Source of the DNA: Actinomycetota bacterium
GTDB lineage: Bacteria; Actinomycetota; Aquicultoria; Subteraquimicrobiales; UBA9087
DNA length: 64,000 nt
Direction: 5' to 3'
Assembly: GCA_030019215.1 (NCBI GenBank)
Contig: JASEEZ010000001.1
Location: 84,211-148,210 of the forward strand
Shown: positions 3,975 through 30,643 of the stretch, one piece after another
Numbering within the stretch: position 1 is the first letter of the stretch
Layout of the letters: each line of letters opens with the position of its first letter
Position numbers and translations under genes: made by a program
The notes under the pieces: generated by a model
Database searches by the model: none
The model's input: the letters and a program-made list of their open reading frames with translations, nothing else
Told to the model about the DNA's origin: nothing

Positions 3975-4213
3975 TCTCTAGTCGAGAGTCTCTCAGTCGG
4001 CAGTCAGCAGTTTTTAGCTCCCAGTCTCCAGCTTCCAGCCGCTAAAATTGGAATTTAAGAACTAAAAATGAAGAATGATTTAAGGATTTAAAAACATTCT
4101 TAATTTTACGTTGCGTAAAGCAACGTTGTTGCCACGCAACTTTACGTTGTAATTTTTCACTTTTCATTCTCCATTTTTCATTAACTCCGACTCCCTACTC
4201 CCGACTACCGACT
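3975..4213. repeat. Nested inverted heptamer arrays with a central 36-bp palindromic micro-element
   Basis: Outer AGTCGRS-like units facing CTCCGAC-like units, middle AAAATGA-like units facing TTTTCAY units, centre element at 4111-4149. Confidence 0.75.
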
Positions 4214-7961: not shown

Positions 7962-8210
7962 AAAAATTCCCCCCCTTAAAGGACTAGTGCAGTTACAACT
8001 ATTTCTTATGCCACTTCTTTCAAATAATACCTTTCACCTTTTGTTTGTCAGCTGACCGACTTTTTGGGAGATCAGCCATGCACCTTCTATGTCTTTTTCT
8101 ACTAAAAAAGACGTAGATTAGTTGACAAAACGTTCTATCTTAAAGTTGTAACGGTACTAGCCTAATGATACCATAATCAGAGGGTAGGAGACAATTTGAC
8201 CGAGTGGCGG

Positions 8211-8780: not shown

Positions 8781-8916
8781 GGATTCGAGGGGTCGAGGAT
8801 TCAAGTGTCGCATTTTTCTAAGATTTTCACTTGACCCCTTGATCCCTGGAATCCTTGAATCCTAAAGCTCTCTTTACGCTTTACTCACCGTAGTGGTTTT
8901 TACCCACTATTTTTGG
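8781..8916. repeat. Octamer-repeat palindromic element plus adjacent MITE fragment (copy 1; copy 2 at 30188-30429)
   Basis: GGATTCGA/GGGGTCGA units facing CTTGACCC/CTTGATCC/CTGGAATC units, then TAAAGCTCTCTT...TACCCACTATTTTTGG, which supplies the last codons of tilS. Confidence 0.85.
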
Positions 8917-10338
8917 TTTTAAATTCTCGACTTTCAACCTTAAAACCTTCCTCGTCTCGTCGGTCACTTTGAACCTATCATCGATCCTGTATCCCACAAC
9001 CCAGACGATCTGGCCATTCATCTCCAAGATGGGAACCCTATCCCTCCTCCTCCTGGGAACTTTCTCATCGACAAAAAAATCCTGAAGTTTCCTGCTGCCC
9101 TTCATCCCCAGGGGCCTGAAACTGTCCCCGGGTAAGCGGGTGCGAATCTTGAGGGTCTCGACTCTGGGGGGTCTCCGACCCTGAAGGGGGGCCTTCAGCT
9201 CATCAGCATCCAGGTAAGCTACTTCCTTTTCCTCGGAAGGCTTAAAATCTCGCGCACTACCGAGATCGGCAATGAACTTTACCCCCAACTCCCTCACCTC
9301 GGTCGCCCCGGGAATATCGAGTAAAACCCCGCCAACGGCGGGGCTTTTGAGTTTCTTTTTTTGGGCAACGATGATCGCACCATACTCACTGAAGGCCACC
9401 AGACCATGGGGTAGATCAACCTGCAGTTTCCCCTTCCCCAAGGCCACATAATCGGAGATAGCCTCGATGTGCTTGAACTCAATTCCGGTTAGATCACCCT
9501 TGACAAAGCGGATACCCTCTCGAATGACCCTCCGTCGAATCGCCAAAGGCAACTTAAGAAGAGCGGAGCGGGTGAGTTTGACCAGTTTCTCTTCAGTCAC
9601 AGCTATTCTCGTGAATTCCTCCTCGGTCACCTCCTCAAGAAACACCTGATCCGCAGCGAGGATTTCGATGGTCTTGAGGGCATTTTCCCTGAACCCGGGG
9701 CTGTACTCTTGAAGAGCAGGTATAAGCCGATGACGAACCCTATTGCGCAGATAAGAGAGGTTTAGATTGGAGGCGTCCACCCGAAACTCTATCCTCTCCT
9801 CCCGACAGTAGGCCTCGATCTCCTCTCTGCCCACCTCGATGAGGGGACGAATGTATCTGTTCCGGACAGGGGGAATTCCTCCCAAACCCTCCATCCCGGC
9901 TCCCCTTAAAATCCGCATAATGAAGGTCTCCACCTGATCGTTGGCCTGATGACCAAGAGCGATCTTGCTTGCTCCCACTTCTTCGGCGACCTCGTCCAGG
10001 AGCATGTATCTCACCTCACGTGCCCCCTCTTCGGGAGAAAGATCCCTCTCATCAATATAGGCGGGAACATCGAAGGAGCGAATCGTACAGGGCAAACCGA
10101 GTTCGCCAGCCAGTTCCTTCACGAAGAGGGCATCCCGCTCCGAAGCCTTCCCCCGCATCATGTGATTGAGATGAAAGACGTGGAGTTCAAGATCCAGGGT
10201 CTCGCGGAGGTCAAACAATACATGAAGCAAGGCTACGGAGTCCGGTCCCCCCGAAACAGCCACCAGGACCCTGTCTCCAGGAGCAAGCATCGAGTACTTT
10301 TGAATTGTCGCAAGGACTTTTTCCTTCACGCCCATCAT
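8881..10338 (-). CDS. tilS: tRNA(Ile)-lysidine synthetase
   Basis: AVSGGPDS PP-loop, HLNHMMR, AREVRY, GHQANDQVET, RNRVRH, C-terminal RLPGD..KLQDFF domain. Confidence 0.97.
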   Translation of the reverse strand: MMGVKEKVLATIQKYSMLAPGDRVLVAVSGGPDSVALLHVLFDLRETLDLELHVFHLNHMMRGKASERDALFVKELAGELGLPCTIRSFDVPAYIDERDLSPEEGAREVRYMLLDEVAEEVGASKIALGHQANDQVETFIMRILRGAGMEGLGGIPPVRNRYIRPLIEVGREEIEAYCREERIEFRVDASNLNLSYLRNRVRHRLIPALQEYSPGFRENALKTIEILAADQVFLEEVTEEEFTRIAVTEEKLVKLTRSALLKLPLAIRRRVIREGIRFVKGDLTGIEFKHIEAISDYVALGKGKLQVDLPHGLVAFSEYGAIIVAQKKKLKSPAVGGVLLDIPGATEVRELGVKFIADLGSARDFKPSEEKEVAYLDADELKAPLQGRRPPRVETLKIRTRLPGDSFRPLGMKGSRKLQDFFVDEKVPRRRRDRVPILEMNGQIVWVVGYRIDDRFKVTDETRKVLRLKVENLKPKIVGKNHYGE

Positions 10339-25794: not shown

Positions 25795-25943
25795 TTTGAC
25801 CCCCAAGAGCAACTAGTTGCTCTTGGGTCTTGTCTTGGGTCTTGGGGGTCATGTCTTGGGGGTCAAGTCTTGAATTGTCTTGGGGGTCATCTTGGGGGTC
25901 ATGAATCTCTTCTCTTGTCTTCTCTTGGGGGTCAAGTCTTGAA
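25795..25943. repeat. Scrambled array of RAYT end-sequence fragments
   Basis: Repeated TCTTGGGGGTCA / GTCTTGAATT pieces and palindrome CCCAAGAGCAACTAGTTGCTCTTGGG. Confidence 0.8.
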
Positions 25944-26860
25944 TTATCACTTTTCTGCGCTCGCTCCTCTATCGCTTTATCACTTTGCTAATAGTAGTAT
26001 AGTGTAGGCCTAGAAAGTCAGCAATTTCTTTCAAGGTGTAACCGTATTTCAGAGCAGCTTCGCGGATAATCTGGTTTCTCTGTTGTTTACCGCTTAACTC
26101 TTTCGACCCGAATAGCTTCCCTAGAGACGGTCTGGCAAGATATCTTTGGTTACGGGGAATCTCCTTTATGTTTTCTTTTCCCCAAAGCCTTTCTTTAAGC
26201 TCACCCATGAAGGCCTCGCTTCCCAAAAAGATCTGGCCTTTTACGCTGTCCCATGGGTTCTCCTCTTCAGAGGATAAAACAAATTCACGATATCTCTTCT
26301 GAGCAGTACTTTTCTCCTTTGCGAATTGGGCTAAGATCCAATCAACACTGAGATACTTGGCTGGTTTCCTAAAACCAGCCGTCTCCAAATAGCTACTCCA
26401 TTCATAATCTTCGGGACTCTCGACAAGTCTTGCCCGAACTGGATTAAGAACAATGTATCGAGAAAGAGATAGGAGATGGCTTTCTTTTTCCACCAAAATA
26501 GCTTTGTATCTTCCCTGAAAGACGTGGCCAACCCGATGGTTAACCTTGTTGAAGCGCTGGGTGTAGAGCCCGTTGAGGTGTCTCATCCCCTTAGAGAGGT
26601 TTCCTTCGGGGGTTTCAATTATGAGGTGATAGTGGTTGCCCATCAGACAGTAGGCGTGGCAAAGAAAGTTAAAACATCCAACAGTTAAAGAAAGAATGGT
26701 AAGGAAAAGCCGGCGATCCTCGCTGGAGAGAAAAATATCTTCTCTCGCGTTTCCTCGTGAGGTTATGTGATAGACGGCTCCAGGATACTCAAGGCGTAGT
26801 GGTCTAGCCATTTGAAATAGAGCTTAACAAAGAAAATCTTATATTTCAAGACCTGACCCC
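25928..26860 (-). mobile_element. RAYT element bounded by 16-bp inverted repeats
   Basis: GGGGTCAAGTCTTGAA (25928) and TTCAAGACCTGACCCC (26845), 15/16 complementary. Confidence 0.8.
25969..26811 (-). CDS. REP-associated tyrosine (Y1/HUH) transposase with C-terminal HTH
   Basis: MARPLR..YPGAVYHITSRGN, YCLMGNHYH, FQGRYKA, YIVLNPVRA, WSSY. Confidence 0.93.
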   Translation of the reverse strand: MARPLRLEYPGAVYHITSRGNAREDIFLSSEDRRLFLTILSLTVGCFNFLCHAYCLMGNHYHLIIETPEGNLSKGMRHLNGLYTQRFNKVNHRVGHVFQGRYKAILVEKESHLLSLSRYIVLNPVRARLVESPEDYEWSSYLETAGFRKPAKYLSVDWILAQFAKEKSTAQKRYREFVLSSEEENPWDSVKGQIFLGSEAFMGELKERLWGKENIKEIPRNQRYLARPSLGKLFGSKELSGKQQRNQIIREAALKYGYTLKEIADFLGLHYTTISKVIKR

Positions 26861-26880
26861 TACCAACCAACTGCAAATAC

Positions 26881-26911
26881 AAATAAACCCCGCCATTGGC
26901 GGGGTTTATTT
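26881..26911. terminator. Terminator after tRNA-Arg, built on CCCCGCCATTGGCGGGG
   Basis: AAATAAACCCCGCCATTGGCGGGGTTTATTT. Confidence 0.75.
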
Positions 26912-30474: not shown

Positions 30475-30643
30475 GATTAATGGAAGGAAATCCGAGAGTT
30501 TTGGCGAAGTAAAAAGTGACCCGAGAATTTGAGCCGACTCCGCCGAGAAGATCTCGGAAAAGTTACCGCAGGCCATTAATCTCGGGTCTTTTTTTGCCGG
30601 CAGTAAATAGCCGCCAGCTATCTGCCATCAGCCATCAGCTAAA

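Follow-up and report, generated by a model that had tools for sequence, protein, structure and literature searches.

The gene tilS, which encodes tRNA(Ile)-lysidine synthetase, carries a real, recent, in-frame insertion in a stretch of 64,000 nucleotides (nt) from an uncultivated groundwater Actinomycetota (GenBank assembly GCA_030019215.1, contig JASEEZ010000001.1, positions 84,211 to 148,210 of the forward strand). We call this whole stretch the window and give positions in its own coordinates; the 1.63-Mb genome that holds it is designated G000, and a genome of the same genus, whose TilS protein is 88% identical, is designated G001. By its sequence the inserted segment belongs to a family of repeats built from units of about 16 nt. 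The reading that we favor, with slightly less than even confidence, is that a very small dispersed repeat, non-autonomous and able to form a hairpin, was mobilized in trans as a discrete element and left a recent copy here. The features on which the argument depends are as follows.

8881..10338, minus strand: tilS, tRNA(Ile)-lysidine synthetase, an open reading frame (ORF) of 485 amino acids (aa) (Pfam PF01171, PF09179 and PF11734)
9154..9187, minus strand: inserted segment, 34 nt in place of one T, a net gain of 33 nt or 11 codons (LQGRRPPRVET region), delimited by an empty-allele contig, the gap in relatives and covariance model R1
9171..9187, minus strand: Unit 1, 17 nt, made of a C-run, a short loop, a G-run and the linker TCGGAGA; read from the sequence and from its alignment with the first units of 11 further copies
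9155..9170, minus strand: Unit 2, 16 nt, made of a C-run, AGAG and the linker TCGAGA; read from the sequence and the family alignment
9148..9153, minus strand: right-hand target flank CTCAAG, which with the lost T makes the TCTCA of the empty site, as in the empty alleles of G001 and of a contig from run X4
9192..9198, minus strand: host flank CTGAAGG, perfectly reverse-complementary over 7 bp to the start of the insert (its first 7 nt), with which it pairs in the predicted fold, probably by coincidence

A recent in-frame insertion in tilS

A genome search found tilS as a single match in G000. Its product has a PP-loop ATPase domain (residues 24 to 204), a TilS substrate-binding domain (residues 257 to 313) and a TilS_C domain (residues 396 to 465; Pfam), and the insert, with 385 codons ahead of it and 89 behind, adjoins the N-terminal edge of TilS_C. 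The original prediction, made from the letters of the window, had described an in-frame insertion in tilS that can make new peptide inside an essential gene. The minus-strand sequence that it quoted for 9152 to 9187 matches exactly, its expectation that deleting 33 nt gives back KAP-LKIR was correct, and the in-frame insertion itself, with new peptide in an essential single-copy gene, was borne out by the ortholog alignment, the DNA gap and the single genome match.

For the ortholog alignment, 29 of the 30 TilS loci returned for 41 related genomes were used, the other being a partial locus without a usable ORF. The 11 residues between KAP and LKIR were present in 1 of these 29 sequences, that of G000; G001 is without them. 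Among these orthologs the segment is confined to G000, and it is the derived state against 28 outgroup sequences. When the tilS DNA was aligned with that of the four nearest relatives (G001 and three order-level relatives), the insert appeared as one clean 33-nt gap and was unlike the flanking tilS sequence. Among closer proteins, in a cluster at 90% identity, three of the five members carry an identical QGRRPPRVET insert, and exactly those residues are missing from the other two, which are 97% and 96% identical to the TilS of the window.

Contigs (not raw reads) from four runs of one groundwater study, X1 to X4, were compared with the window. Contigs from X1 (2,516 nt) and X2 (2,987 nt) cross the insert with 4 to 5 differences per kb. 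In the X4 contig only one letter separates 9153 from 9188, and in the X3 contig 9144 and 9188 are separated by ten diverged letters; both are empty alleles, and that of X3 reads TCTCAGGGTG on the minus strand. Because the X1 and X2 contigs are filled and those of X3 and X4 are empty, the insert is polymorphic among nearly identical strains. The X4 junction further indicates that the event was other than a pure 33-nt insertion: the empty allele reads GGCCCC-T-CTCAAG on the minus strand, and its T is swapped for the 34 nt at 9154 to 9187. The X1 and X2 contigs also carry two substitutions with respect to the window, 9163 T>C, which is synonymous, and 9194 T>C, which changes a flank codon from K to R and weakens the pairing between flank and insert.

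Short repeats often break or confuse assemblies, and several G001 arrays of the family described below border runs of N, so an assembly or binning artifact had to be considered. We regard it as vanishingly improbable: independent contigs cross the insert in X1 and X2 and the empty site in X3 and X4, the frame is open, and three cluster members have the same 11-residue peptide.

Directly after the insert comes the residue aligned with position 383 of Geobacillus TilS (chain 3a2k_A), where the match to the C-terminal domain starts. In an AlphaFold2 model built from a 42-sequence alignment, with a 482-residue numbering that begins at codon 4, the mean predicted local distance difference test score (pLDDT) was 90.3, and residues 381 to 390 (384 to 393 of the 485-aa ORF) scored below 50, between confidently predicted strands at 370 to 374 and 394 to 396. 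The simplest reading of this model is that the 11 residues form a tolerated surface loop, not a useful one. The finding shows that a repeat of 33 nt can enter an essential translation gene and persist as peptide, since one natural population holds both the filled and the empty allele.

A family of small tandem repeats and its host genes

The family was found by comparing insertions and deletions (indels) between G001 and G000 (130 G001 contigs, 821,844 nt; 375 alignments with a mean identity of 86.6%), followed by motif, nhmmer and covariance-model searches. Among the indels were two insertions with sequence like that of the tilS insert, one of 33 nt in G001 (L134:1207-1244) and one of 18 nt in G000 (C11:63988). 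An alignment of 12 two-unit copies has 14 invariant columns and the tool consensus nnnCCCCTCGGGTCGGAGnCCCCTnCGGGGTGAGACCC. In the usual form, two tandem units of about 16 nt make up a total of roughly 33 to 40 nt bounded by GGGTC...GACCC; each unit consists of a C-run, a loop of 2 to 4 nt, a G-run and a linker that is rich in purines and ends in AGA(C), and in each of the 12 aligned copies the units run in the same direction. In tilS, a small palindrome (GGGTC-GGA-GACCC) spans Unit 1 and the start of Unit 2. Longer arrays occur as well, such as one of four units at C22:39709-39772 in G000, and arrays differ between G000 and G001 by whole units, 15 and 30 nt, one array having gained exactly two units (30 nt).

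The covariance model of the family, R1, matched the tilS insert with 41.1 bits (E = 5.2e-6). Matches to R1 occurred in 5 of the 41 related genomes: 11 in G000, 7 in G001, 3 in G028 and 1 each in G024 and G018, the last three genomes belonging to another family-level group of the same class. There was none in the six order-level relatives G002 to G007 among those searched. The distribution of the family is thus patchy.

Family copies stand mostly close ahead of start codons or at the 3' ends of genes. We examined the gene context of 17 sites in G000. The tilS copy is the only clear mid-gene copy among them. Three further copies supply the last 13 to 15 codons before the stop of real genes and may be C-terminal replacements through insertion:

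G000 C14:14152-14184: 3'-terminal copy in an Orn/DAP/Arg decarboxylase
G000 C33:52810-52845: 3'-terminal copy in a CLP1_P P-loop protein
G000 C13:3328-3363: 3'-terminal copy in a UDP-GlcNAc 2-epimerase

Five of the 17 copies (on C12, C10, C2, C51 and C19) lie just upstream of plausible start codons, and the ORFs downstream include adenylate kinase-like, PurE-like and LeuA-like ones, named from N-terminal sequence only. With the copy at C11:63988, which is in no long ORF, the intergenic copies number 6 of 17. The remaining seven are in short or unresolved ORFs; for those on C8, C52 and C9 the start-codon check gave no answer.

The original prediction had been right that a repeat family exists, but it had described the tilS segment as a triplet alternating with its reverse complement (X/rcX/X/rcX/X) with fixed linkers, and in this form the idea was not supported. 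Such layouts arise readily by chance. The window contains 11 exact-triplet layouts of this kind against 1 to 7 in five shuffles, and the tilS copy qualifies only with two mismatches. A pattern search with the proposed linkers returned the tilS copy as its sole match in the window, where 0.12 were expected and one or more matches turned up in 12 of 100 shuffles. The linkers of the family are not fixed (TCGGAGA, TCGGAA, TCGTAGG, GTGAGA, TCGAGA and TTGTAGA), and that pattern therefore misses the family. Nor do the slots covary with the target, as had been suggested: CCC/GGG nearly always fills them in the 12 aligned copies, whatever the flank, and AGA, proposed as one of two mismatched slots, is AGG in the X1 and X2 contigs through the substitution at 9163, a strain-level difference. 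A separate first family with 36-nt insertions, also mentioned there, was not identified in the window, part of which is covered by G001.

The family also occurs in frame in another gene. The R1 matches of G028, G024 and G018 fall at one orthologous place, where a 30-nt copy lies in frame in gatB in three other genera, read on the opposite strand as LAPEGSDPRG:

L276:390-1868: gatB of G028 with the insert (with L290 and L291)

Among 31 aligned GatB sequences, 3 carry the family insert, 2 (G008 and G032) carry an unrelated insert of 10 residues there, and 25 have none, including that of G036, which is of the same genus as G018. In G001, gatB (L072, contig 42) is unreadable exactly at the insert site because of 181 N, after which comes AGGGTCTCAC, a sequence similar to the end of a unit. 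The two kinds of insert suggest that the gatB loop is an insertion hotspot.

Other small hairpin families behave alike, with elements of 21 to 63 nt showing clean presence or absence between G000 and G001. Six G001 genes with Pfam-confirmed identities carry such inserts:

G001 L128:3980-4042: 63-nt insert in a B12-binding radical SAM enzyme
G001 L073:2111-2134: 24-nt insert in a GNAT acetyltransferase
G001 L082:412-432: 21-nt insert in a glycosyltransferase of family 9
G001 L092:1399-1425: 27-nt insert inside the RNB domain of RNase R
G001 L052:212-247: 36-nt insert in a penicillin-binding protein (PBP) dimerization domain
G001 L046:8121-8177: 57-nt insert in an amidohydrolase

These six inserts belong to families other than that of tilS, for example, a 21-nt CCTGCC...GGCAGACACGG element and CCCCGCC...GGCGGGG hairpins, and they hold 11-mers found 9 to 45 times across G000 and G001. 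Together with gatB, they uphold the proposal that small repeats make new peptide in housekeeping genes of the genus. The lengths in multiples of three, also remarked on there, look like an outcome of selection. For indels of 12 to 120 nt between G000 and G001, 22 of the 28 that fall deep within long ORFs and have clean flanks were multiples of three, whereas the 234 others split 85/77/72 among the three remainders, which points to selection on frame and not to elements built in threes. For annotation, the lesson is that a short insert restricted to one lineage in a conserved gene may be a copy of a repeat and not alignment noise.

Junctions, donor search and possible routes of insertion

Three clean, polarized de novo events were available. 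Their empty sites are GGCCCCTCTCAAG in tilS, CGTCTCTCACTCC at the C10 site that is filled in G001 (L134:1207-1244) and AACCTCTCACCG at C11:63988. The word TCTCA, which we spotted post hoc, stands at the junction in 3 of 3 empty sites; in a simulation, any 5-mer was common to three random sites in 115 of 200,000 draws (P value = 5.8e-4). In tilS of G000 and at the C10 site of G001, one T was replaced by 34 nt beginning with CC and ending with GAGACC, and these two events are independent and share the same unit phase. The third event added a single 18-nt unit. The idea that native tilS resembles a unit and so draws in more units was also tried and was rejected, the three empty sites being no more family-like than random 40-mers (P values = 0.13, 0.31 and 0.31).

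We favor mobilization in trans because independent events have identical length and phase, the target word is common to them, the distribution of the family is patchy, and other hairpins insert as exact pieces. The sequences show that a two-unit copy entered tilS at TCTCA and exchanged one T for 34 nt, so that 33 nt were gained and the frame was kept, and that the carrier allele survives beside the empty one in the groundwater study. Beyond this, a single-stranded DNA piece of one or two units would have been made as a discrete copy, rather than being generated locally, and a trans-acting enzyme would have joined it to the target.

The obvious candidates to move small hairpins, although unproven, are six genes of the Y1 (HUH) transposase family, which gave the 6 matches above the cutoff for PF01797 in G000. 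One of them is in the window:

25969..26811, minus strand: Y1 transposase-like gene, 280 aa (NCBIfam NF047646, REP-associated tyrosine transposase, 85.4 bits against a cutoff of 80)

Its flanks (25821 to 25927 and about 26830 to 26900) contain GGGGTCAGGTC upstream and, downstream, a tandem array of the form (TCTTGGGGGTCA)n together with several GACYTGACCCC words.

Several results weigh against the trans-mobilization reading. A search of the six Y1 loci (19,566 nt) with R1 and its filters off gave a best match of E = 1.3, that is, no family copy, and two of the six genes are flanked by a different inverted repeat, the GGGGTCAGGTC just mentioned. The absence of target-site duplication and the loss of one base are unlike classical transposition, and outside the element there is no constant sequence 5' of all copies. 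No donor was found: the 25-nt core of the tilS copy had no second copy in the 1.63 Mb of G000 in a fuzzy search allowing up to 6 substitutions, and exact matches in the metagenome contigs numbered zero. A looser family pattern matched at least 120 stretches of those contigs; nearly all of these appear to be chance matches, since only L372 among the 80 loci that were fetched gave even a marginal match to the model (E about 8e-4). The predicted folds count against it too. In the consensus fold (7 pairs) an inner CCC/GGG stem is enclosed by an outer one of GGTC/GACC, with a compensatory change in only 1 of the 7, and single-strand folds were no stabler than those of shuffled sequences (z = -1.03, -0.34, +0.15 and +0.44). 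We saw no evidence of a structured RNA, and Rfam 15 returned only a chance-level RsmY match on seven copy-bearing loci (17.5 bits against a gathering score of 57). No RNA data set was among those listed with the stretch. Finally, three clean events are few, the target word was noticed after the fact, G001 is 76% complete, and only about half of G000 could be compared.

A rival reading needs no dedicated enzyme. By polymerase template switching, or microhomology-mediated copying, the nascent tilS strand would leave its template in the C-run, anneal through a few bases to an array elsewhere, copy two units of it, return at CTC(A) and skip the T, and the family would spread through the recurring microhomology of its C-runs and loops. 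The non-conservative junction, with a T lost, no duplication and short identities at both ends (CCCC on the left and CTC on the right), agrees with this, as does the recurrence of the exchange of a T for 34 nt in G001. Insertions of about 18, 30 and 33 nt are whole-unit lengths, such as exit and reentry in the same phase on a periodic template would give. Moreover, many units have TCTCA as their loop (CCTCTCAGG), which means that the "target" could simply be microhomology, and no transposase association was found at the six Y1 loci. However, the junction identities of the G001 event are only about 1 nt on each side, the empty sites are overall not family-like, and no template with the tilS sequence is present in the assembly, nor an exact one in the metagenome contigs. 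Other hairpin families insert as exact 21-nt pieces with no obvious junction identity (judged by eye, with no formal test), and switches between loci on 1 to 4 nt would need to recur often. On this balance, we consider template switching a serious candidate to which we give roughly one-third of our belief.

A bolder version of trans-mobilization would make the units themselves the mobile entities: a new class of ultra-small modular elements of 16 to 17 nt, moving one or two at a time into TCTCA sites, with one base removed and no duplication, perhaps through a Y1/HUH enzyme that pairs the GAGA linkers of the element with the TCTC of the target, and producing standing variation in protein length in essential genes (tilS, gatB and RNase R) of natural populations. 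We think that this full scheme is unlikely.

A further reading places the origin within tilS itself. By slippage or fold-back synthesis on tilS, the perfect 7-bp inverted repeat between the flank CTGAAGG and the insert would be a footprint of the event (P value = 0.016), and the native PL(K/R)(V/I)R codons are indeed loosely unit-like, as in the X3 empty allele. Yet the complementarity was nominal at the left flank of tilS only, 1 of 26 flank tests. We treated it as chance because a lone nominal result in 26 tests is lost after correction for multiple testing; it is probably coincidental, and target mirroring as a general property of the family was rejected, nothing comparable being seen at the other 25 flanks. 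The insert, moreover, fits the consensus of a family present at 10 or more other loci, including its 14 invariant columns, adjacent tilS sequence was not copied, and the likeness of the empty tilS site to the family was not significant (P value = 0.13). A diverged local duplicate is implausible because strains 96 to 99% identical without the insert leave no time for such divergence. Local de novo origin is therefore very improbable.

Relation to known small repeats and other repeats in the window

In form and location, the family resembles repetitive extragenic palindromic (REP) sequences and bacterial interspersed mosaic elements (BIMEs), and it departs from them in two defining respects, the flanking of transposase genes and the inverted doublet. 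REP palindromes have a conserved GTAG at the 5' end; among our 12 aligned copies, TCGTAG occurs at the first linker in 4 and TTGTAG at the second in 2, and tilS has TCGGAG and TCGAG. REP sequences, BIMEs and REPINs (doublets of REP sequences), with their REP-associated tyrosine transposases (RAYTs), are short palindromic repeats that are predominantly extragenic (Bertels & Rainey 2011, PMC3116915). The likeness lies in imperfect palindromes of about 20 to 40 nt, tens of dispersed, mostly extragenic and non-autonomous copies, clustering with other small repeats, occasional tandem arrays and a genome that holds RAYT-type Y1 genes (PMC3116915). The differences are that the units of our family stand in direct tandem where REPINs are inverted doublets, that they measure about 16 nt with stems of 3 to 6 bp, and that the copy in tilS lies within a gene and keeps its frame. 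The association with RAYT genes that defines REP sequences is missing as well, since none of the six Y1 loci carries a family copy at its flanks.

A second point of comparison is found in cyanobacteria. Elhai and colleagues reportedly described, in 2008, dispersed units of about 20 nt that occur in tandem in varying copy number and fall into defined families of approximately 21 to 27 nt with structures and nesting rules of their own; they are said to be apparently mobile with no identified enzyme, as judged from filled versus empty sites in relatives. Small dispersed repeats of cyanobacteria are also mentioned in PMC2884548 and PMC3116915. As so described, they resemble our family in size and tandem behavior. 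They differ in belonging to another phylum, with no sequence relationship known, and for our family a TCTCA target and the exchange of one base are on record. The uncultivated Actinomycetota lineage studied here offers a compact natural system for asking how REP-like or small dispersed repeats move and how often they seed protein loops.

For peptide gained from a repeat, the nearest parallel is the Rickettsia palindromic element (RPE). RPEs are about 150 bp long and lie in frame in unrelated housekeeping genes, where they encode a conserved peptide that the fold tolerates. Palindromic repeats that add tolerated peptide in frame are common to both systems (PMC10969869). By the same account, RPEs are about five times longer and keep their peptide conserved, whereas our family is 33 nt long, lies mostly outside genes and differs from gene to gene in reading frame and strand, giving PLQGRRPPRVET in tilS and LAPEGSDPRG in gatB.

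Two classes of transposable element are also comparable. The usual size of MITEs, the miniature transposable elements with inverted repeats, is roughly 50 to 500 bp. The family shares with them its non-autonomous nature, short terminal inverted repeats (GGGTC/GACCC) and presence/absence polymorphism, and differs in having no target-site duplication, in being below the usual size and in that the analysis identified no insertion sequence with the same ends that could be its parent. Elements of the IS200/IS605 type insert 3' of a fixed target of 4 to 5 nt, which stays intact at the left end; in our family, by contrast, the target T is lost, and the left flanks outside the element vary among copies.

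The window contains other repeats. Between ftsH and an hpt-like gene, a 177-nt element (7984 to 8160) has 17-nt terminal inverted repeats that are 88% complementary; it is missing from G001 (a 173-nt gap), its end word is the commonest 16-mer of the genome (39 copies), and it looks MITE-like. The tilS-hpt intergenic region (8814 to 8915) includes a 68-nt segment missing from G001 and a (CTTGAACC)n array, and contig depth from the four runs piles up there, as is typical of a multicopy repeat. Intergenic tandem arrays of 7- to 8-nt units, including (TGTTCCT)7 and (TTCGTCC)11.6, occur at 500 to 671, 4152 to 4213, 30615 to 30639 and elsewhere and are reminiscent of cyanobacterial heptamer repeats, and arrays with an 8-nt period, such as GAAGGACG repeats, dominate the 16-mer spectrum of the genome.

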